From: Pyrinomonadaceae bacterium
GTDB taxonomy: Bacteria; Acidobacteriota; Blastocatellia; Pyrinomonadales; Pyrinomonadaceae
NCBI GenBank assembly: GCA_050250045.1
Contig: JBFWPK010000014.1
Location: 20,841 to 84,840, forward strand
Direction of reading: 5' to 3'
DNA length: 64,000 nucleotides
Shown here: piece by piece, positions 4,446 through 49,483 of the stretch
How the letters are laid out: each line of letters starts with the position of its first letter
How positions within the stretch are numbered: the first letter of the stretch is position 1
Position numbers and translations under genes: made by a program
Notes under the pieces: model-generated
The model's input: the letters and a program-made list of their open reading frames with translations, nothing else
What the model was told of the DNA's origin: nothing
Database searches by the model: none

Positions 4446-5510
4446 TCAACGTAGGAACCTCCCTTTCGGCCGCCCAGCAGCGGCTTTTAAATATTCCTCC
4501 TTATCGCGCCCTCCGCCCCTTTCGATCGTGTAGCCTTTATCAACTAAAGTGTTCGCGATCTCATCGATCTGCTTCCGCGTTGCGTCGCCACCCAGCCTTC
4601 CCGCCCGCCTCGCGATCTTGGCACCATCGAGATAGTTTCCGGCGATTGGAATTAATCCTCCAAGACCCATTAAGCCGCTTAGGTGATCGCCTCTTCCAAA
4701 ATCGATACCCGCACTTAGAAGTCCCGTCGCCTGCGAAGCGATGGGTATCTCGGTCGCTGCAACGCCGTCAAAGAAAAACTGAGTTGCATCAAGCAGTTCT
4801 TCGGCACTTGCCCCGTGCGTTAGGTCTATTATTATTGGGTCCTTGTTGGGCAGGCATTCCAGGCGGGGGGCGCATAAACTTAGCATTCCGCTTGAGCCAC
4901 CCGTTTCGGAACCTGCCGACGCAGGGGCCGCGTTGGAGGCGGCGGCTTGGGCCGCAGTTTGGCCAGCGGTGTTGCTCGTCGCGTCGGCTACGCTACGTCC
5001 TTGCGCGGTAGCTTGGTTTTGCGGTGAGCTCGGGACGACTGTGCGCCTCCCGTCCGGGTGGAAGTACAAAACGCTTCCAACGCCATATTGATTCCCGTTC
5101 GAATCGAGCCCTCCGGATCCCTCGGTTCGCCGGAGTTTCTGGCCGTCAACATTCTCCCATGTTATTCCGCCTTCATCTTTAGGACATGGTTTTCCTTCTC
5201 CTGTGAATCTTGGTTCTCCTTCGTTACTCAGGCACCAAGACAGTCCGCTCGGGTCGGTGTAATTTATTGGATTGTTTCCCGTATATGTATAGCGATTGAA
5301 AGTCTGAGGATTAGTCGCGCTCGCACTCGCGAGCAGCGGATCCACCGCCGTAAACCTTCCATGCTTATTCTGGTACATCCTCGCCTCGGCGAAGTCGAGG
5401 CCGGTCTCGTCGTCCTTTTCGTAGCCGGTGAAGCGCTTTCGCACACAGTCGGTGCCGCCGGTTCAGGGCTTTGGTGCGGTTGCCCACTCCGGCGCCGATC
5501 TCTTATGACT
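4446..5510 (-). CDS. orphan RHS C-terminal cassette (end of RHS core plus alternative toxin domain), no proper start
   Basis: Frame 4446-5444 begins inside the RHS core: RKRFTGYEKDDETGLDFAEARMYQNKHGRFTAVDPLL...NPINYTDPSGL. A unique 250-aa tail follows. Core homology continues upstream to about 5510 in another frame, so it is frameshifted. No ATG or RBS context. Confidence 0.75.
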
Positions 5511-5527
5511 GCTTTCAAAGCGCGAAA

Positions 5528-5884
5528 TCATAAAACGTGAATGCCATCCAGTTCAATTTCTAATTCGTCATTTCCATTATCGTAACACGTCATCTCGATA
5601 CTTAAGTCTGATTCACCTTCCTCTAAGGTCCACAATGGGAAATCGACACTCCACCGCGGAGGGTTTGAATCGATGACCGGAGTAATATCTACGCTTTCAG
5701 GGAACGAAGACGGAGGATTAATAAGCGTACGCCCATACTCGGAGATCGCCTCGCTGATCTGGGTTTCGGTCAACCTCTGATTTTTCGTTATCAGCGCAAT
5801 TTCAGAATATTTTTTCTCTACTAGAAGCCGAACTAATCGTTCTGCCGCCGCCATAATAATGTTGTCCATCGGATTGTTTTGCAT
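5528..5884 (-). CDS. hypothetical protein, candidate immunity protein for the main RHS toxin
   Basis: 118 aa, acidic, AT-rich. Starts 4 nt after the RHS stop codon on the same strand. Confidence 0.55.
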   Translation of the reverse strand: MQNNPMDNIIMAAAERLVRLLVEKKYSEIALITKNQRLTETQISEAISEYGRTLINPPSSFPESVDITPVIDSNPPRWSVDFPLWTLEEGESDLSIEMTCYDNGNDELEIELDGIHVL

Positions 5885-5887
5885 GTT

Positions 5888-8800
5888 TCACCTCCGATTT
5901 CCAGGTATGCGTGTAGGAGTTGTCTTATTCACTCCCAGTCCACCAAAATACGCATCGGCTTTATTGATCGCATTACGCGCCTCGGATCGGGATAATCCTG
6001 CCTTTCTCAAAGCCTTATACCCGATTCTTCTCTCTGCTCCATACGTTCCACCTCCTCTTTGTCTTTGGACCGAAGTGGCGATATTGTGTGGCGTACCTGC
6101 CAAATTCGGAGGGCCGGGTAAATGTACGCCTGGAGCCGCGTTTTTTGAATAACCCGGCAGGTTTTTAACAGCGGCATGCTGAATTGTGTGATGAGCGTCC
6201 TTAAACCCAGCATTTTTCAAAGCGCTGATGGAGTCCATCGCTTTATCTGCTTTTCGGAACCATTTGACGCCCGGTATCAGGTTGGGCAGTTCCGATAAAG
6301 CCTCTCCACCGTTGGCCTGACCGCTCGTGACAAGGATGACAACAGCCGTAGCCGCAACGTTCGCGCCCGGGACCAACTGAAGGAGGCGGGCAGCATCCTT
6401 GATGTCCTCGACCGTTTGCAGCCCTGGGGCAGCCGCCGCGGCATCGGCCAATGTGTTGGACCACAACGGACTCCCGCCCCCACAACTTTCGCACGGAAGC
6501 GGGAGTGCCCCGCGAGGAGCTATGTTCGAGCTGATCTCTGCGGCCGGTGCGGAGCTGATCGCCTCCTGCTCCGCCCGCACCTGAACGCCCTTCTCCGGTG
6601 CCAGGTCCGCGCTCCGCGATGCCGGCACCAACGGAGTGAACGACCCATTCCGGTTCAGGGTGCCGTAATCGCCAACCTGCCCGCCCACGTCCGACCAGTC
6701 CCCGCCCGAAAGCGTGACCGCCTCGCCGTCGACGTTCGCCCACTTGTCCTTCTCCGTATCAGTAGGACACGGTTTCCCCACTCCCGTAAACGTGGTAGCC
6801 CCGCTGTTGCTGCGGCACCACGAGAGCCCGCTTGGGTCTGCGTAGTTCACGGGGTCGTTTCCCGTGTAAATATACCGGTTAAAGGTCTGCGGGTTCACGG
6901 CGCTCGCACTCGCCAGCAGCGGGTCGGGCGCGGTGAATCGGCCGTGCCTGTTCTGGTACATTCGCGCCTCGGCGAAGTCGAGGCCGGTCTCGTCGTCTTT
7001 TTCGTAGCCGGTGAAGCGCTTTCTCACACGGTCGGTGCCGGCGACCGAATACTTCAGGCTCTCCGATCTTGCCCCGACACCGACGCCGATTTCTTCGCCG
7101 AACGGCATAAAGTCGCGGCGGGCGATCACCTGGCCTGAGGCGTCCGTTATCACTCTCGGGCTTCCGAGGTGATCTGTTGTCAAATAGCTTGTTTCGGCTT
7201 CCTCAGCCGGTGCAACCACCGTCGAGTACTCCGCCGCGAGTGCACCTCCGGCGTCGTAAACGAAAATGGTCGTCTCGGTCGCGGTTACCTTCTTGACCCG
7301 CGCACCGCTCCCGTCATAGGAGTACCTTCCGATCACGTTCGCATCGGGGTTCTCCGGCGGCGGCTGGACGTTGAGGTCCCTTATCTCGGTCTGCTTGTCG
7401 TCCCCGTTAAAGACGAAACTCCGGTTCTGGGCATCCAGGATCAAATTCCCGTTGAAATCATAAACGTATCCCTGCCCGGTGGTGAAGCGGTTGTTCGTCT
7501 GATCTATCGTCGGGTGCGTTAGGTTGTTAATCGGAAGCTGAGTGCTTCCGACCGTCTGCGAAAACTGCGTCCGGTTCCCGTATCGGTCATAGCCAAAGGT
7601 TTGCACCCAGTTCTGCGTCGTTCCGGTTTTTTCTACGGCTTCCGTCAGTCGGTTGATCGCGTCATACTTGAACGTCTGAACAAAACTGGTCGTCGGAATA
7701 GTCGTGGTCGTCTTCGCGATCATCCCGATGTTCTTCGCCGTATCGACGGTAACACCGTCCGCGTTCAACTCGCCGTACTCGTAATCGATCTTGAACAGGT
7801 CATTGTTCGTCTGCGAGGTTCCCAGTCCGACCTGCTTCAATTGATTAAGCTCGTCGAAAACGGCGGTTTCCCACAATCCGTTCCCCAGCTTCATCTTTCT
7901 GACAGCACCCGTCGCCGAGTAGTCGAAATCCGAAGCAAGCGGATTCATCATCCCGGTCGCGGTCTTAGTTGCCACCGCACTCAATCCGCCGTCGCTGTCC
8001 AGAAAGTTGCGGACAAGCCTCCCGCTCGGATACGTCTGCTCGATCAGCCCGCCCGAAAGATTGTACTTATAAGTGAAACCGTAAGTCTGCCCATCGGTGA
8101 TCTGCTCACTTGCCAGCAATCGTCCGTGGTTATCAAAACTCGTGAACCGGTCCTCGGAAACGGTGCTGGTGACTTTGGTCAATGCACCTCTCGAGAACGC
8201 AGGTGTCGAAGGCAGCCCTTTTCCGTCGTAGAAAAACTCGACCTGCGGCGTCCCGTCGGAGTATGTCCTTTTTACGGGACGACTCGCTTTGTCGTACAAA
8301 TTCGTGATCGTTATGTTCTTCGCGTCGGTAACACTGAGAACATTTCCGAAATCATCATACGTATAGGCGGCCGTCCACTCGTTGTTGTCGGGATTCCCCG
8401 TCGTCGCAAGGTTTGAGTTTGGCGTTTGCTCGGGCTGTCTGACTTTGATCAAGCGGCCGAGCGAATCGTACATAAAGAATCGATTCTGCCCGCCTTGAGC
8501 GATCTTCACCAACTCGCCCTTAACATTGTAACTATAGAAAGTCGGCTGAGTCGGGTTCGCAAGAGTTCCCAGGTCCTGCTCGGCCGAGCCGCCCTTAGCG
8601 GTCGCTTCGTCGACGCGCATCAAGCCATAGATTCCCGATATTGCCCGTGATTTTCTTCCCGAAGCGTCGGTCGCAACGACGTACGTCCCAATCAGGCCCG
8701 TAAGGTCGGAGATGCCGAACTGGACAGTTCCCAGGCTGATCCCAGTTTGCCCCTCAGGCGCCGGGGCGTAGGTCTCGACGACGCGACTTTGGTGGTCGTA

Positions 8801-43029: not shown

Positions 43030-43524
43030 CTAAGGTTCAAGCGGGAGTTCTCGATCAAGAATAATACGCAAAAATTCGTCTGGTCTGACAATCGTAAGAT
43101 GCCGCAATCGCTGTCGGAACTGCTTGCTTTCGACGTCAATTCCCGTCATTAGATCGAGCAAGTCGCGATCGGATGTGACGAGATATGCAGCTTCAATCGC
43201 AGCCGCGAGGTTCAGGTATGGTTCGTCATCCGAATCCCGCGGGAGAGTTGCAACCGATGGGACTTTCTTGACTAGCGTTGATTCGGAAATAATCTGTCTG
43301 ACAAAGTCTTTCGCATTCTCAGAAGAATAGTTCGGAAACCTCGCGAGCGTCTCTTCCCGCGTCAGAACATCGAGAAGTTCCTCGACAGTTTCCGTGCTGA
43401 CGAAATGTTCGACTAATTTGTCCTGTATCAGCCGCCGGCATTCACTTCCTAACCCGTTTCCAAAAAAGAACGCTCGCCAAAGTACGTTGCAATCATAGAC
43501 TACCCGAAATCTATGTTCCGCCAT
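43030..43524 (-). CDS. PIN-domain toxin (PIN_3/TIGR00305-like)
   Basis: 164 aa. VVYDCNVL...RDSDDEPYLNLAAAIEAAYLVTSDRDLL. Confidence 0.75.
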   Translation of the reverse strand: MAEHRFRVVYDCNVLWRAFFFGNGLGSECRRLIQDKLVEHFVSTETVEELLDVLTREETLARFPNYSSENAKDFVRQIISESTLVKKVPSVATLPRDSDDEPYLNLAAAIEAAYLVTSDRDLLDLMTGIDVESKQFRQRLRHLTIVRPDEFLRIILDRELPLEP

Positions 43525-43784
43525 TAATCTTCACGGCGAGCATCGCTACGCTCCTTACGTACCTGCCGAAGTACTCCGTTCATGAATGTATCCAACTCCT
43601 CCTCGGAAATCCCGCTCTCAGAAACGGTACGTCTCAAAGGCTCTAGCTGCTCGTCAAGCGAGCGTCGTCGAACATCGCGTTTGATCAGGGACTGAAGATA
43701 CACATCCAACTCGACACCCTCCAAAGAGGCGGCTTTTCGCAAGAGTTCTTCAGTTTGCGGGTCAAGGTCAACAGCTACAGTCAT
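43524..43784 (-). CDS. putative antitoxin of the PIN toxin
   Basis: 86 aa. Its stop overlaps the toxin start (ATGA-type junction). Confidence 0.5.
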   Translation of the reverse strand: MTVAVDLDPQTEELLRKAASLEGVELDVYLQSLIKRDVRRRSLDEQLEPLRRTVSESGISEEELDTFMNGVLRQVRKERSDARRED

Positions 43785-44050: not shown

Positions 44051-45592
44051 TCAGATGCCTGTCAGTTTGACGCAAACGTTCTTTTCTTCCGTGAAAAATC
44101 TCAATGCCTCGAAGCCGCCTTCGCGGCCGAGGCCGCTGTCTTTCATGCCGCCGAACGGGGTTCGCAGGTCGCGGAGGAGCCAGCAGTTTATCCAGATGAT
44201 GCCGGATTCGAGTGCGGCTGATACGCGGTGTGCGCGCGAAAGGTTTTCGGTCCAAACGGTTGCCGACAGGCCGTAGCGGACGCTGTTTGCGTAGCCCAGG
44301 ACCTCGTCTTCGGTGTCGAAGGGCATTATTGTGACGACCGGGCCAAAGATCTCTTCGAGGTTTGTACGGCAATCGTGCGGAAGATCTTCTATCACGGTGG
44401 GTTGGATGAACCAGCCGGTGAGTCGTGACTGCTCATCGGGCACACTCCCTACCGGTCGTGTTTCCGCCTTTTTTTCTCTGCGTCTTTGCGACTCTGCGGG
44501 AAGATCTACCGCTTTCCCGCCGCACAATATTGTGCCGCCTTCGCTCTTTGCAAGTTCGATGCATGACGTTATCTTGTCAAAGTGCTGCTTTGAAACTATC
44601 GCACCGACATCGGTGTCGGCATCAAGAGGATCGCCGACTTTTAAGGAAGCAACGCGTTCGACAAAATCGCGTTTGAATTTTTCATATATCGGCCGCTCGA
44701 CAAATATCCGCGAACCGCAGAGACAGATCTCGCCTTGATTTGAGAACGATGAGCGGACGGTAGTCGATAGCATTTGCTCATAATCGCAGTCGGCGAAGAT
44801 AATATTCGGATTCTTGCCGCCGAGTTCGAGCGAAAGTTTCTTGAACATCGGAGCCGCCGTGCGGGCGATCTCCTCGCCGGTCTTTGTGCCGCCTGTGAAT
44901 GAGATCGCCTTGATATCCTTATGAGCAACGATCGCCGAGCCGACCTTTGGGCCCGTGCCGTGGACGATATTCAAAACGCCCTCTGGGAGACCGGCCTCGA
45001 TGCACAGCTTAGACAGCATATAAGCCGTCATCGGCGTGACCTCGCTCGGTTTGGCGACGACCGTGCATCCGGCCGCCAGAGCCGGTGCAATCTTCCACGT
45101 AAAGAGATAGAGCGGCAGATTCCACGGCGAGATGCAGCCGGCGACGCCCATTGGCTGGCGAAGTGTGTAGTTGATCGCCTTAACACCGCCGGGCAGTGAA
45201 GTATCGTGTGATTCGTTTGCCACGTGTATCGCGGCGGTTGCATAAAATCGGAAATTCGCCAGTGCACGCGGAATATCGACAGAGCGCGCCAGCGAAACCG
45301 GCTTGCCGTTATCGACACTTTCGGCCATGGCCAGATCGTCCAGATCACGCTCGATCAGCGTTACCAGTCGCATCAGCGTTTCAAATCGATGTTCAGGCGG
45401 CGTAGCGGCCCACGCCGGAAACGCGGCCCGGGCGGCATCGGCCGCGAGATTGACGTCGCGATCGTCCGAGTCAGGGATCAGTGAATAGACGCGGCCGGTG
45501 GCCGGCTCAAAATTGTCCAGATATTCCGCGGAAGCCGGCGACACGAGTTCGCCGCCAATATAATTTTCGATCGTGAGCATATTTTGAAGCAA
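44051..45592 (-). CDS. NAD-dependent aldehyde dehydrogenase (candidate 2-aminomuconate-6-semialdehyde dehydrogenase)
   Basis: 513 aa. ELGGKNP and FSNQGEICLCGSR catalytic-Cys region. Contains an in-frame family B repeat insertion. Confidence 0.88.
   Translation of the reverse strand: MLQNMLTIENYIGGELVSPASAEYLDNFEPATGRVYSLIPDSDDRDVNLAADAARAAFPAWAATPPEHRFETLMRLVTLIERDLDDLAMAESVDNGKPVSLARSVDIPRALANFRFYATAAIHVANESHDTSLPGGVKAINYTLRQPMGVAGCISPWNLPLYLFTWKIAPALAAGCTVVAKPSEVTPMTAYMLSKLCIEAGLPEGVLNIVHGTGPKVGSAIVAHKDIKAISFTGGTKTGEEIARTAAPMFKKLSLELGGKNPNIIFADCDYEQMLSTTVRSSFSNQGEICLCGSRIFVERPIYEKFKRDFVERVASLKVGDPLDADTDVGAIVSKQHFDKITSCIELAKSEGGTILCGGKAVDLPAESQRRREKKAETRPVGSVPDEQSRLTGWFIQPTVIEDLPHDCRTNLEEIFGPVVTIMPFDTEDEVLGYANSVRYGLSATVWTENLSRAHRVSAALESGIIWINCWLLRDLRTPFGGMKDSGLGREGGFEALRFFTEEKNVCVKLTGI
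44441..44468. repeat. family B element inside the aldehyde dehydrogenase gene
   Basis: CACACTCCCTACCGGTCGTGTTTCCGCC. It lies within an extra segment of about 24 aa (ESQRRREKKAETRPVGSVPDEQS) just before the conserved GWFIQPTV. Confidence 0.85.
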
Positions 45593-45827: not shown

Positions 45828-46002
45828 GATCAGTGGGTAGTGGGTCAGTTTGAAATCGAAATTGGTTCAACTGCACAAGCCCGCACGCAGTAAGGGCGAT
45901 GTCCGGAACGTTGAGTGTATCGCCCTTACTGCGTGCGGGCTTGTGCACTATCCATTCTTTCCAAAATCCGCGAATTGATTTCAAGCTGACCCACTACCGA
46001 TC
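45828..46002. mobile_element. MITE-like 175-bp long inverted repeat with a family C palindrome (45872-45947) at its centre
   Basis: The outer arm GGTAGTGGGTCAGTTTGAAATCGAAATT matches the reverse complement of the other arm, AATTGATTTCAAGCTGACCCACTACC. The inner arm is TGCACAAGCCCGCACGCAGTAAGGGCGAT. Confidence 0.7.
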
Positions 46003-46147: not shown

Positions 46148-46603
46148 ATGACCAAGACTTGCCCGAATTGTCAGCAGGCCAATCCGCCCGACGCCGCATT
46201 CTGCCTAAACTGTTCGACCCCGATCGGGCCGACGGTGGGCGGGACCGGTTATCAGCAGCAGAGCCCGCCGTTTGTCGGAGGACAGGCGCCATATGTCGGC
46301 GCACCGCCGCAGCAGTATCGGTCACCGCAGGGTGGAGGCTCGGCCGGCGGCGCGAGTGGGCGAGCGATCGGGGCGGCAATTCTTGCCGGGGTGACGCTTA
46401 TTCTGTGCTGCGGCCCGTTCACTGGGATCCCGGCGGCAATTTTGGGCTGGCTGGAACTAGAGGCCATCAAGAGCGGCCAGGCTCCTGAGGCAGGGCGTAT
46501 TTGGGCCCAGATCGGATTGTGGGGCGGCATTGCGGCGACGATCATTTCGTCGATAGCTGCGCTCTTCTTCATGCTGCTAGGCATGGTCCCAGTGGGGATG
46601 TAG
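46148..46603 (+). CDS. zinc-ribbon protein with C-terminal DUF4190-like membrane domain
   Basis: CPNCQQANPPDAAFCLNC. G/Q/P-rich linker. Two TM helices. Confidence 0.75.
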   Translation: MTKTCPNCQQANPPDAAFCLNCSTPIGPTVGGTGYQQQSPPFVGGQAPYVGAPPQQYRSPQGGGSAGGASGRAIGAAILAGVTLILCCGPFTGIPAAILGWLELEAIKSGQAPEAGRIWAQIGLWGGIAATIISSIAALFFMLLGMVPVGM

Positions 46604-46614
46604 GATCGCGAATT

Positions 46615-48045
46615 ATGTCTGACCAAAGCCGGGTAAAGTGCAGCAATGGCCACGAGCAGCCGCAGGCGGGCTCAAAATTTTGTATCTACTGCGGCGTTGC
46701 GGTAGTTATTGTTGCCCCGCCTGTGCAGAACCCGTTTCATCAGCCGCATCAGGCGAGTCAAGGCCCAACGCCCCAGTACGGCAACTACCAACAGCAGCAG
46801 CCGCCTGGAAATCAGTATCAGAATTATCAGGCGAATCAGCAGCAGTACTATCAGCAGCCGCAGTATCAGCCGTTTCCGCCGCAACCGGCCGGCTGCCGAA
46901 CGTGCGGGGGCAACCCGGCTGGTTTGCCGGATAAGGTTGTGATCTGTCGTGAGTGTCGATCTCTCAAACCTCTTGTTCCGGGATACACGGTAGACAATTC
47001 GGCCTACGCCTGGGCAGCGGACGCAAAGGCAATGTCCACGCTTCGTTCGCTGACGCCTCTGAATGCTGCCGCAAAAGCAGTCTCGGAAAAGGTCGGCCGG
47101 CGCTGGATCGAAGTTACATTCAATGGGGTCAGGCTTAGTGAACGGCAAATGCCCCACGTCTACGGACAGGCGGTTCGAGCGGCGAGGATCCTCGGGATGT
47201 CGCATATGCCCGACGTTTATCTTTCGGGTGAACGCCCGTGGGATATGCTTACGTTCGGCACCGACAAAGACTCATTCATCGTCGTCGGCTCAGCTCTTGC
47301 GGGAAATTTCCAGGGTGTCGATATGTTGTTCCTGCTCGCACGCGAGATGGGCCACTGCAAGTCGGGGCATGCGCTCTGGAAAACCGTTATCCGGTTCTTT
47401 CTTGGTGAGCAGGGGCCGTCAAAGGGTTTTATGGCGGGCGGGATCTTCGCGGCCTTGAGTCCGAGCGCTCTGCTCAGCGGCGCGATCGAGATGCCGCTGC
47501 TTGGCTGGGCACGCCAAGCTGAGATCACTGCGGACAGGGCGGGCTTGTTGACGGTCGGGAACGAGGACGTCGCCCGCCGGGTTCTATTGTCGTGGTCGTT
47601 GAAATCATCGTTCATCTATAAGCAAATAAACATCGAATCCTGGCTGGAGCAGCAATCCGTTGAGGACGATTCGTACATCAAGCTTTCCGAATTGACTACG
47701 ACCTCAACTCCTTACATCGGGCCGCGGCTCAAGCTTTTGGCCGATTTTGCCCGGAGTCCGGAATTGCAAAGTTCGCTCAGGATAATCTCGGATACGATAA
47801 AGCGCGCCGCACCGCCAACTAAGCCGAAGCCCCCAGCTGACGCCGAAGTACTGCGATTTAAATGTTCGACGTGCGGGGCAGCAATAAAGATCCCGCGGCA
47901 GGCCCTGACGGGGAAAACGGTGCTTCCAGTCAAGTGTCCCAACGCAAAATGCGGCGCAATCACGCGTCTTAAGAAAAACGCAAAAGCCGGCCGTGGCAAA
48001 CCACAAAGGCCGAGTAGACAGGAGAATCTGAACTATGGCGATTGA
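46615..48045 (+). CDS. zinc-ribbon / Q-rich / M48-like domain protein with degenerate HExxH and C-terminal zinc ribbon
   Basis: ATG at 46615. CSNGH...CIYCG, then a QQ-rich linker. M48-like LFLLAREMGHCKSGH (REMGH instead of HExxH) and ARQAEITADRAG. C-terminal CSTCG...CPNAKCG. Confidence 0.7.
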   Translation: MSDQSRVKCSNGHEQPQAGSKFCIYCGVAVVIVAPPVQNPFHQPHQASQGPTPQYGNYQQQQPPGNQYQNYQANQQQYYQQPQYQPFPPQPAGCRTCGGNPAGLPDKVVICRECRSLKPLVPGYTVDNSAYAWAADAKAMSTLRSLTPLNAAAKAVSEKVGRRWIEVTFNGVRLSERQMPHVYGQAVRAARILGMSHMPDVYLSGERPWDMLTFGTDKDSFIVVGSALAGNFQGVDMLFLLAREMGHCKSGHALWKTVIRFFLGEQGPSKGFMAGGIFAALSPSALLSGAIEMPLLGWARQAEITADRAGLLTVGNEDVARRVLLSWSLKSSFIYKQINIESWLEQQSVEDDSYIKLSELTTTSTPYIGPRLKLLADFARSPELQSSLRIISDTIKRAAPPTKPKPPADAEVLRFKCSTCGAAIKIPRQALTGKTVLPVKCPNAKCGAITRLKKNAKAGRGKPQRPSRQENLNYGD

Positions 48046-49483
48046 AGACAACATGACCATTACCGAGACGGGGCCCGATGGCACGGAAACGGAATTTGAG
48101 ATCACAACCGGGACCGTCGATGAGCTGGCGGGCGAAGACCAGGGCTTTGCCGAAGAAGCCGTCGCCGCGATGTTTGACGATGCGTCGACAGATCAGGAAG
48201 CGTCATATATCGATTACGACGGTGACGGTAAATTGGATACCGCCGCCGCCGATACGGATGGAGACGGACTTGCTGATACGGCGGTTGCCGATACTGATGG
48301 TGATGGCAAGATCGACGCCATGGGACAGGACACCGATGGCGACGGGAACCTGGATGTAGCTGTCTTTGATACCGATGGCGACGGCGTGGCGGATGCATCG
48401 ATGCAGGATACTGACGGAGACGGGGAGATGGACGTTGTCGATATTGACGGTGACGGCGACGTTGATTTTACGACCGAGGCGTCTGAAGGATTGCCGACCG
48501 AAGAAGAGATCTCGACCAACTCGGTCGAATTCACGGTCGGGGACGACGGTTTCCCGATCTCTGATACCGCTGAAGCCGAAACCACCTCGGATTTCGAGGA
48601 GGCCGCATTCGAAACGCCGGTTGAATTTGGTGCCGAGCCGGTAGTCGATACGGTGGCGGACCCGACGATCGACACAGGCTATTCGAGCGAAACCGACAAC
48701 GCGACGGCGACCGCTGAGGCTGATGCTGCCGAGGCGGCGGCTGAACAGGCACACGCCGACGCTGCCGCTGAGGCACAGGCAGCGGCCGATGAGTTCGTCG
48801 CGGAGGGTGACTATGCGGCTGCGGCGGATGCCCGCGAGACTGCCGAGAACGAGGCGTATCAAGCAGGAGATTCGTCAATGCTGGGCGGTTCGGATTCCAC
48901 CGATCTCGAGGGCGCGGCGTGGAAGCAGGAGGTCGCGGAAGATTATCAGGCGCAGCAGCAGGAGCATATCGAGGAAGGCGATTACGAGGCGGCGAAGGAG
49001 GACGCGCAAAACGCGGGTTATGCGACGGGTGATGCCGATTTCCTCGCGGGTGGTGACGATCATACCGGTCAGTCGGACAACGACGTATCTAACCTCGATA
49101 ACGCGGTCTATAACGAAAAGGCTGCTGAGTCTTTTGAGAAGGATGCCGAGTGGTATGCCGAGGCGGGCAGTGAGGATGCTGCCGACGCCGCCGCCGCGAA
49201 TGCCGACGCCTACCAGGCCTCGGCCGACGAGTCCGCATCGCGGGCGGACGAGGAAAGTTACAACTACGATGACGACCCGTCTGCGGCGGTCGAGACCGGC
49301 GGGACATACGATCCCGGAACGTACGACGCGGGTACATATGATGCCGGCGGTTATGACGCAGGAGCGTATGATGCCGGCGGTTATGATGCGTCCGTGGATT
49401 CCGTAGATACAGGTATCGATACGAGCGTAGATACAAGCGTTGCGTCCACTTACGATACGACGATCGACGACGGGACCGTTTGA
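48035..49483 (+). CDS. hyper-acidic repeat protein with DTDGDG calcium-binding-type repeats
   Basis: 482 aa. About 8 DxDGDGxxD repeats. A/E/D-rich helical middle. GTYDAGxYDAG tail. Overlaps the upstream stop by 11 nt. Confidence 0.65.
   Translation: MAIEDNMTITETGPDGTETEFEITTGTVDELAGEDQGFAEEAVAAMFDDASTDQEASYIDYDGDGKLDTAAADTDGDGLADTAVADTDGDGKIDAMGQDTDGDGNLDVAVFDTDGDGVADASMQDTDGDGEMDVVDIDGDGDVDFTTEASEGLPTEEEISTNSVEFTVGDDGFPISDTAEAETTSDFEEAAFETPVEFGAEPVVDTVADPTIDTGYSSETDNATATAEADAAEAAAEQAHADAAAEAQAAADEFVAEGDYAAAADARETAENEAYQAGDSSMLGGSDSTDLEGAAWKQEVAEDYQAQQQEHIEEGDYEAAKEDAQNAGYATGDADFLAGGDDHTGQSDNDVSNLDNAVYNEKAAESFEKDAEWYAEAGSEDAADAAAANADAYQASADESASRADEESYNYDDDPSAAVETGGTYDPGTYDAGTYDAGGYDAGAYDAGGYDASVDSVDTGIDTSVDTSVASTYDTTIDDGTV

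Follow-up and report, generated by a model that had tools for sequence, protein, structure and literature searches.

A predicted pseudo-enzyme branch of the M48 peptidase family is encoded together with an acidic helical partner protein

Introduction

Bacterial pseudo-enzymes that derive from metallopeptidases are few and informative. For example, degenerate LytM factors control cell-wall amidases. Two of these M23-type proteins, EnvC and NlpD, have metallopeptidase folds from which metal ligands are missing, and they work through the partner proteins that they bind. Here, we describe a candidate for a pseudo-enzyme in another family, M48. The gene, which we call g2, lies in a 64,000-nucleotide stretch of DNA from a soil acidobacterium, a Pyrinomonadaceae bacterium (contig JBFWPK010000014.1; this whole stretch is “the window”). 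It is the middle one of three genes on the + strand: g1 (46148-46603, 151 amino acids), g2 (46615-48045, 476 amino acids if counted from the ATG that leaves a gap of 11 nt after g1), and g3 (48035-49483, 482 amino acids). In g2, arginine has replaced the first histidine of the HExxH zinc-binding motif, and g3 encodes a hyperacidic protein.

Within the M48 family, BepA of E. coli has a TPR domain of helical hairpins in addition to its M48 domain and acts both as a protease and in a chaperone-like manner (PMC7950410). BepA has four zinc ligands (H136, H140, E201, and H246), and the last of these is the histidine of the HPx4R “plug,” which is a family-wide fourth ligand (PMC7950410). The genome that contains g2 also encodes a canonical soluble zinc-ribbon M48 protein, the paralogue P0277 (327 amino acids, contig C3), with the COG0501-type annotation “Zn-dependent protease with chaperone function.” We compared g2 to these proteins and to its own relatives, and we examined how consistently g2 is associated with g3.

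Results

An M48 protein with arginine in place of the first zinc histidine

The g2 protein looks soluble, with an isoelectric point (pI) of 9.5 and no convincing transmembrane segment. From the N terminus, it has a zinc ribbon, a low-complexity linker, a second zinc ribbon, a degenerate M48 domain, and a C-terminal zinc ribbon. The M48-like domain covers residues ~125-400 (46987-47814), and the profile for Peptidase_M48 (PF01435) matches residues 189-328 with 31.1 bits, as compared to a gathering score of 20.3. Judged by its sequence, g2 is a member of the M48 peptidase family, as had been proposed in an earlier reading of the DNA alone (the original prediction). We found about 970 homologues of g2, mostly in metagenome-assembled genomes (MAGs) from Pyrinomonadaceae and other Acidobacteriota, and these carry precomputed matches to PF01435. 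In databases, g2 genes are named “M48 family metallopeptidase” or “M48 family metalloprotease.” Profile and single-sequence searches of g2 against the sequences in the PDB gave no match.

At the position of HExxH, g2 has REMGH (47341-47355; the motif reads LAREMGHCKSGH). Arg243 is encoded by CGC (47341-47343), and Glu244 and His247 are kept. Downstream, RQAEITADRA (47512-47541) includes E303. Both the CGC codon and the retention of RQAEITADRA were noted in the original prediction and are as it described them. The active-site plug (STPYIGPR, 47704-47727) is degenerate: the Pro and Arg of HPx4R are kept (T365-P-Y-I-G-P-R371), and Thr365 is found where M48 enzymes have His.

The roles of these residues can be assigned via the paralogue. 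Because the alignment of P0277 with HtpX (3CQB) and BepA (6AIT) spans the HExxH and ExxADR motifs, R243 of g2 takes the place of the first zinc histidine, E244 corresponds to the catalytic base, H247 to the second histidine, and E303 to the third ligand. So, the first histidine is absent and the other three residues are present. As in g2, the M48 domain of P0277 is immediately preceded by a zinc ribbon (CRYC ... CGKC in P0277), and the domain order is the same. The two proteins are 29% identical over g2 residues 93-347 and have a common W-x-R-x-x-E-x-x-x-DR motif at the third ligand. Unlike g2, which has REMGH and TPYIGPR, P0277 keeps AHEVGH, RRAELSCDR, and an HPFPVWR plug. P0277 also lacks the N-terminal ribbon and Q/P-rich linker of g2, the C-terminal extension with its ribbon, and an adjoining acidic partner. 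Judged by their open reading frames (ORFs), the neighbors of P0277 look like genes for an rRNA methyltransferase and for CutA. Most relatives encode this paralogue, in contrast to the patchy distribution of g2.

The first ribbon of g2 (C9, H13, C23, and C26; 46639-46692) is invariant at all four positions in an alignment of 20 sequences. It is followed by a Q/P/Y/N-rich linker (46714-46890) whose length and sequence vary among homologues. The second ribbon (C94/C97/C111/C114, or CRTC ... CREC; 46894-46956) is invariant as well and lies directly before the M48 domain. It was overlooked in the original prediction, which did identify the N- and C-terminal ribbons. The C-terminal ribbon comprises C417/C420/C441/C446 (CSTC ... 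CPNAKC; 47863-47952). Relatives of g2 from Gemmatimonadota and Gammaproteobacteria have two tandem copies of the C-terminal ribbon. For Zn_ribbon_4 (PF13717), there was only a faint precomputed match, in relatives of g2.

The arginine is shared across the g2 lineage

In the 20-sequence alignment (64-80% identity), R243, G246, H247, H252, E303, and D307 are invariant, and E244 is conserved at 90% or above. An exhaustive search of 1.84 billion representatives gave roughly 1,500 homologues. Close relatives of g2, down to about 40% identity, all have RE(M/I/L)GH, and the motif becomes HExxH in the more distant ones, at about 30% identity. We also read the codon in 93 Arg-type genes from the loci that we fetched, and all 93 encode arginine (60 as CGC, 10 as CGT, 10 as CGG, 6 as CGA, 4 as AGG, and 3 as AGA). 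This synonymous turnover of the codon, which includes switches from CGN to AGR and leaves the amino acid constant, indicates that the arginine has been under purifying selection for a long time. We rejected a sequencing error or a strain-specific mutation at R243, as arginine is constant in the roughly 100 genes that we examined, all six of its codons are used, and the Arg clade is monophyletic (see below).

In a quick FastTree analysis of the M48 domains of representatives, 24 Arg-type sequences formed one clade (Shimodaira-Hasegawa-like support of 0.998) that was nested among HExxH sequences. Another ten Arg-type sequences were scattered elsewhere in the tree, which implies that the change from His to Arg arose independently several times. 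These ten sequences are P0254, P0260, P0235, P0268, P0270, P0216, P0211, P0198, P0162, and P0161, and the plug histidine was lost each time. In the M48 subgroup that includes g2, the first histidine is also replaced by Lys (in one sequence) or Tyr (in two). Overall, these sequences indicate that arginine in place of histidine is an ancient, fixed, and selectively maintained trait of the g2 lineage.

Further losses at the zinc site

We counted the other ligands across related sequences, which are not independent samples. In this comparison, none of the 35 Arg-type sequences has the plug histidine, which 50 of 62 His-type sequences keep. A residue other than E or D takes the place of the third ligand in 8 of 34 Arg-type sequences versus 1 of 66 His-type sequences. 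The plug position of Arg-type proteins is hypervariable (T, N, A, V, S, Q, I, E, M, or L), and the Pro, Tyr, and Arg that flank it stay. At the third-ligand position, the residue of some Arg-type relatives is D, A, T, N, Q, or H; the copy from Terricaulis has Ala. The direction of these losses fits a site that does not bind zinc anymore. Given Arg243 and the missing plug histidine, we predict that g2 is most likely a pseudo-protease, and the name “M48 family metallopeptidase” probably overstates the activity of these genes.

g2 and g3 form a conserved pair

In the window, the end of g2 overlaps the start of g3 by 11 nt (48035-48045, ATGGCGATTGA). This stop-start overlap suggests that the two genes are translationally coupled. 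The original prediction proposed to check the conservation of the gene neighborhood, and it is conserved. We scanned species-representative genomes once and obtained 80 loci, all from Pyrinomonadaceae or Blastocatellia. g3 comes after g2 in all of the 72 Pyrinomonadaceae loci with sufficient downstream sequence, and 65 of these 72 keep the 11-nt overlap. Of 74 Pyrinomonadaceae loci, 69 have g1 ahead of g2. The genes that flank the cassette are syntenic in one relative (locus L005) and completely different in another (L003), and the cassette is intact in both. The original prediction had allowed that the relatives of g2 might all have an intact HExxH and that the three genes might not co-occur; instead, the arginine is fixed and the genes are linked.

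Arg-type g2 is not common. Using a threshold of E < 1e-60, we found it in 11 of 301 sampled Acidobacteriota genomes, from five families. The conserved helical domain of g3 (described below) was found in 9 genomes, all of them among these 11; the other 290 genomes did not have it. One of the two Arg-type genomes without a detected g3 domain has a diverged partner, and the other has just a convergent acidic gene with DxDGDG repeats (L111, described below). Within the source genus, the cassette is intact in 4 of 8 sampled genomes (including the source), is deleted or fused in one, and is absent from three. The patchy distribution within the genus and the deletion in a congener imply that the cassette is dispensable.

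Several loci have unusual arrangements. In the congener with the deletion (L113, contig C3 of genome G077; 5109-6839, minus strand), the loss of ~1.1 kb fuses the front of g2 to the rear of g3 to give a single ORF of 576 amino acids. The ORF starts with the first ~185 residues of g2, breaking off ahead of the REMGH helix, and continues through a short out-of-frame stretch into the rear of g3. This fusion reflects either decay of the cassette or a collapse in the assembly of the MAG. At another locus (L111), a 195-amino-acid acidic gene (7235-7822, minus strand) with ADGTV/DTDGDG repeats and no helical domain is convergent with g2 and faces it. A genome from another family within the Blastocatellia (G050) has two full copies of the cassette, on its contigs C10 and C3 (L106 and L107).

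Arg-type proteins also occur outside of the Acidobacteriota. Using a profile of the most distant Arg-type members, we found proteins that are attributed by their sources to Pseudomonadota, Pseudomonadales, Terricaulis, Gemmatimonadaceae, Terracidiphilus, and Acidobacteriaceae. A Terricaulis record in NCBI/UniRef that is not from a MAG (P0509) has an Arg-type protein, and the Terricaulis context that we read is from the GenBank assembly GCA_044224985.1. We read seven gene contexts (L114-L120), which are from Terriglobia, Gemmatimonadota, Alpha- and Gammaproteobacteria, and a Joint Genome Institute (JGI) metagenome contig. All seven have REMGH, and in all seven, at least one acidic protein (17-32% D+E) with (A/E)xGDYxxA helical motifs is encoded directly after g2. 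When we compared the alignment of g3 to these partners with hhalign, there were matches to the partners from Terricaulis (probability of 98%, E = 9e-14), Gemmatimonadaceae (probability of 95%, E = 5e-8), and a gammaproteobacterium (probability of 88%, E = 3e-6). The homology of the partner to g3 is based on profile comparison for these three loci and on shared motifs for the other four. According to these comparisons, g2 and g3 are co-inherited in at least three phyla of bacteria. Overall, the conserved core of the cassette is the pair of g2 and g3.

The conserved part of g3 is a predicted three-hairpin domain

The g3 protein is 28% D+E and just 1.7% K+R, with a pI of ~4.05. No signal peptide or transmembrane segment was found (the best 19-amino-acid Kyte-Doolittle window is 0.56). 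The part of g3 that is conserved everywhere, including in the partners from other phyla, is an acidic helical domain of ~170 amino acids at residues ~233-405 (48731-49249), which we recognized from alignments, AlphaFold2, and hhalign. AlphaFold2 modeled a piece of g3 (48731-49330) with a predicted local distance difference test score (pLDDT) of 95.0 and a predicted template modeling score (pTM) of 0.87. The model has helices at 2-25, 28-45, 56-81, 85-106, 113-144, and 148-170 of the modeled piece, which form three hairpins. Each hairpin turns at an (A/E)xGDYxxA motif, and the loops that join the hairpins are conserved (AGDSSMLGGSD and GGDDHTGQ, the latter at 49049-49072). According to the model, the core of g3 is a folded domain despite the disordered look of this hyperacidic protein.

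A Foldseek search of the domain model against PDB and BFVD gave no significant match (best E = 0.73, TM-score at most 0.30). The faint similarities that it listed were mostly to designed helical repeats, along with four-helix bundles, and we rejected them as relationships (TM-score at most 0.30, E > 0.7). As a domain without a structural relative, it may define a new domain family.

The rest of g3 is more variable. The N-terminal motif TITETxPDGTETxFEITT (48056-48112) is conserved in Pyrinomonadaceae, in one to three copies, and was not seen in other phyla. Residues 60-144 (48212-48466) contain seven D-x-DGDG-xx-D repeats of ~13 residues each. These are a variable insert: when we aligned first 36 and later 80 partners, many g3 proteins of Pyrinomonadaceae and all of the partners in other phyla that we read turned out to lack the repeats. 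The tail of G-x-YDAG repeats (GTYDAG/GGYDAG, 49292-49375) varies in copy number. Among curated profiles for Ca2+-binding repeats, just EF-hand_5 appeared for g3, far short of its threshold (E = 0.1 and 12.5 bits; the gathering score is 25.9). The original prediction was right about the length of g3, the lack of a signal peptide, and the YDAG tail. It listed about 8 DTDGDGxxD repeats where we count 7 D-x-DGDG units, and its emphasis on calcium repeats was misplaced, as the repeats are variable and the conserved part of g3 is the acidic three-hairpin helical domain.

A sister clade with intact HExxH has its own acidic partner

In the tree, the sister of the Arg clade, with weak support (0.686), is a clade of HEFGH-type proteins (P0165-P0175 and metagenome loci L121-L169). 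Like g2, these proteins have N-terminal ribbons, an M48 domain, and C-terminal ribbons, and their plug histidine is already Thr or Ser. Unlike g2, they keep both histidines of HExxH. Directly downstream is an acidic gene (23-29% D+E) with DxDGDG/DxDxDG motifs, a YD(A/S)G tail, and the start MQLPGDMNVQGLA... In contrast to g3, this acidic partner lacks the GDY helical domain (no match with hmmsearch). We found no homology between the helical domain of g3 and these partners: just the DxDGDG regions are alike (E = 1e-6 with BLASTP against a tiny database), and this likeness could be due to convergence. Double-zinc-ribbon (DZR) proteins of 210-270 amino acids are encoded next to the HEFGH-type M48/acidic gene pairs (L121-L169).

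Judged by sequence, then, the helical partner domain seems to be specific to the Arg clade. We tentatively propose that the pairing of g2's M48 subgroup with an acidic protein predates the change from His to Arg. HEFGH-type M48 proteins and their acidic partners are a second uncharacterized module of a protease with an acidic partner.

g1 is an accessory gene

The small membrane protein encoded by g1 begins with a zinc ribbon (46160-46222; 25.2 bits for Zn_Ribbon_1, with a gathering score of 25), which is followed by a linker whose composition is rich in G, Q, P, and Y (46223-46357) and a DUF4190-like hydrophobic hairpin of two helices (46358-46600; the hydrophobic segments are at residues 68-102 and 122-151). 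This is the architecture that was originally proposed, with a correction for DUF4190 (PF13828) itself: both hydrophobic segments are present, but the score of g1 is 24.3 bits, which is below the gathering score of 35. Homologues of g1 in L005 and L006 bear a precomputed DUF4190 match.

Of the five Pyrinomonadaceae loci without g1, two have another conserved small ORF upstream of g2 (L039, 4415-4792; L048, 4393-4695), with the sequence MTAHILCTQAWLLVGITRNVPGILELNNGRL... In Pseudomonadota and Gemmatimonadota, this position is occupied by a zinc-ribbon and/or transmembrane protein that ends in a SHOCT domain, and the Terriglobia loci have no gene there. Thus, g1 is accessory, lineage-specific, and outside of the universal core. 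The three genes of the original prediction do make up a conserved unit in Pyrinomonadaceae, but in other phyla g1 is missing or replaced by these zinc-ribbon/SHOCT membrane proteins.

Gene neighborhood

As was originally described, the three genes are on the same strand and tightly packed, with a gap of 11 nt followed by an overlap of 11 nt. Upstream of g1 is a divergent gene for an aldehyde dehydrogenase (minus strand, ending at 45592), and downstream of g3 is a convergent gene for an S58/DmpA-type peptidase (minus strand, from 49518). With a divergent neighbor on one side and a convergent one on the other, g1-g2-g3 are isolated as one possible transcription unit. A scan for promoters and terminators gave counts that were not above those for shuffled sequence, and none of the hits were convincing.

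The leader of g1 is 555 nt. An Rfam scan of the operon and this leader found no riboswitch, just sub-threshold “miRNA” matches (to mir-5881) on both strands at 45869-45950. The leader contains a palindromic, MITE-like (miniature inverted-repeat transposable element) repeat at 45828-46002, and matches on both strands arise because this is a hairpin-type palindromic element. We therefore rejected a riboswitch. The repeat probably accounts for the long intergenic region upstream of g1.

Farther upstream, between an M20 peptidase and the aldehyde dehydrogenase, 43030-43784 (minus strand) encodes a PIN-domain protein of 164 amino acids and an upstream partner of 86 amino acids whose stop codon overlaps the start of the PIN gene. 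This pair looks like a VapBC-type toxin-antitoxin system and is conserved in the syntenic locus L005.

Discussion

A proposed complex of a non-catalytic g2 with g3

We somewhat favor the view that g2 is non-catalytic and forms a stoichiometric complex with g3, with a lineage-specific membrane tether. g2, which looks cytoplasmic, would no longer cut peptides and would act as a binding or scaffold protein instead. The guanidinium group of Arg243 may fill the former metal site, where it would be held by Glu244, His247, and Glu303. The conservation of these three residues alongside the arginine is what would be expected if the guanidinium occupies the old position of the metal. A complex of g2 and g3, at a ratio of about 1:1, is proposed because of their apparent translational coupling, their strict co-inheritance, and their opposite charges in Acidobacteriota (pI of ~9.5 versus ~4). 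In Pyrinomonadaceae, g1 could bring this complex to the inner face of the membrane; in other phyla, the unrelated zinc-ribbon or SHOCT membrane proteins at the position of g1 might do so.

Several observations weigh against this view. The case for a complex consists of linkage, the start/stop overlap, and opposite charge, and the g2 proteins of Proteobacteria and Gemmatimonadota, with a pI of 6.2-8.7, are not basic. At L111 (contig C17 of G035), an Arg-type g2 has no adjoining gene with the helical domain. The hhalign scores for the distant partners are from sequences with a strongly biased composition and may be inflated, although the register of the motifs agrees. When we modeled full-length g2 with AlphaFold2 from the 20-sequence alignment, the pLDDT was only 46.6, which is too poor to examine. 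Finally, the strong conservation of Glu244, His247, and His252 also fits a site that is still doing chemistry.

Alternative explanations

This last point raises the question of whether g2 is still an active hydrolase. It might hold a metal with His247, Glu303, and another residue, or catalysis might be assisted by the arginine; g3 would then be a substrate, a pro-peptide-like inhibitor, or an activator that acts in trans. Across the Arg clade, the TADR motif shows little or no variation, like Glu244, His247, and His252. The sister clade with intact HExxH also has an acidic protein downstream, so the pairing seems to predate the loss of the histidine, and this may point to a relation between an enzyme and its substrate or regulator. 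Also, g3 has a conserved loop with a histidine (GGxDHTGQ) that could in principle reach the site. However, two of the family's four zinc ligands are gone from g2, the Arg clade has a hypervariable residue at the plug, and several Arg-type lineages have lost the third ligand as well. We know of no active M48 enzyme with RExxH, and none was described in the literature that we searched. We consider an active g2 to be improbable. A different proposal, which follows the original prediction, keeps g2 as a pseudo-protease but makes it the transducer of a membrane-associated module for sensing or buffering Ca2+, with g3 as the calcium-binding component. The seven DxDGDGxxD units of g3, which are DxDxDG-type loops, and its very high negative charge would suit this role, and DxDGDG motifs recur in the acidic partners of the HEFGH clade (the BLASTP match against the tiny database). 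But repeats that are missing from many Pyrinomonadaceae g3 proteins and from every partner read in other phyla are not the core function of g3, and no Pfam model for the EF-hand or related repeats reaches its threshold. Furthermore, the proteins look cytoplasmic, and free Ca2+ is low in the cytoplasm, and no domain in the cassette resembles a signaling output. This, too, seems unlikely, though we give it slightly more weight than an active enzyme.

The cassette could also be a mobile conflict or defense system, or a pair that resembles a toxin and its antitoxin, in which g3 mimics nucleic acid or neutralizes the basic g2. Its patchiness (11 of 301 Acidobacteriota genomes, and 4 of 8 intact in the genus), its presence in several phyla and in two copies in one genome, and the combination of a basic protein with a very acidic one in Acidobacteriota are in keeping with this idea. 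On the other hand, nothing in PADLOC or PHROGs matched above noise: for the three proteins, the single match in PADLOC-DB was between the C-terminal zinc ribbon and PDC-M14A, at 15 bits (E = 0.006), and PHROGs gave nothing. There are no mobile-element genes in the flanks, which within the genus are syntenic housekeeping genes. The acidic partner is large and folded, unlike a short labile antitoxin, and g2 is not basic outside of Acidobacteriota. We think that a conflict system is very unlikely.

Significance and comparison to described systems

The original prediction could not assign the locus to any described system, and neither could we: none was found in PADLOC, PHROGs, or the searchable literature. 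In that literature, we found no paper on Arg-type, inactive, or zinc-ribbon M48 proteins, on DUF4190 with a zinc ribbon, or on a hyperacidic partner like g3.

If g2 is indeed non-catalytic, then Arg-type M48 proteins would be a pseudo-enzyme branch of the family with a dedicated partner from a new domain family. A broader claim, which we put forward as a possibility that may well not hold, is that Arg-type M48 proteins and acidic three-hairpin proteins make up a new pseudo-protease system that spans phyla, in which arginine substitutes for zinc and the cleft holds a g3-type partner whose fold has no solved relative. The repeated and independent changes from His to Arg suggest that this is a favored evolutionary route from protease to binder. 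The g2 lineage offers a clean natural example, with a long-fixed change from His to Arg and the loss of a second ligand, which recurs independently and is tied to one partner. This makes it tractable for asking how the cleft of a protease is turned to a binding role and whether a metal ion can be structurally replaced by an arginine.

Among described M48 proteins, BepA shares the family with g2, and the HExxHxxxxH and ExxADR helices of the two proteins align via the paralogue P0277. BepA (PDB 6AIT and 6SAR) is periplasmic and catalytically active and has all four ligands, whereas g2 looks cytoplasmic, has three ribbons, and has lost two of the four ligands. In BepA, the hairpin domain is in the same chain as the M48 domain, whereas the hairpin-repeat protein that accompanies g2 is encoded by a separate, coupled gene. 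Also, unlike the hairpin domain of BepA, the g3 domain has no detectable TPR (no match in Pfam or with Foldseek). The parallel between BepA and g2/g3 is, speculatively, a loose functional analogy in which the partners are not homologous.

EnvC and NlpD differ from g2 in family, fold, and cell compartment, and their partners, the amidases, are known. What they have in common with g2 is a zinc peptidase fold (predicted from sequence profiles in the case of g2) with missing ligands that is under selection, along with a dedicated partner.

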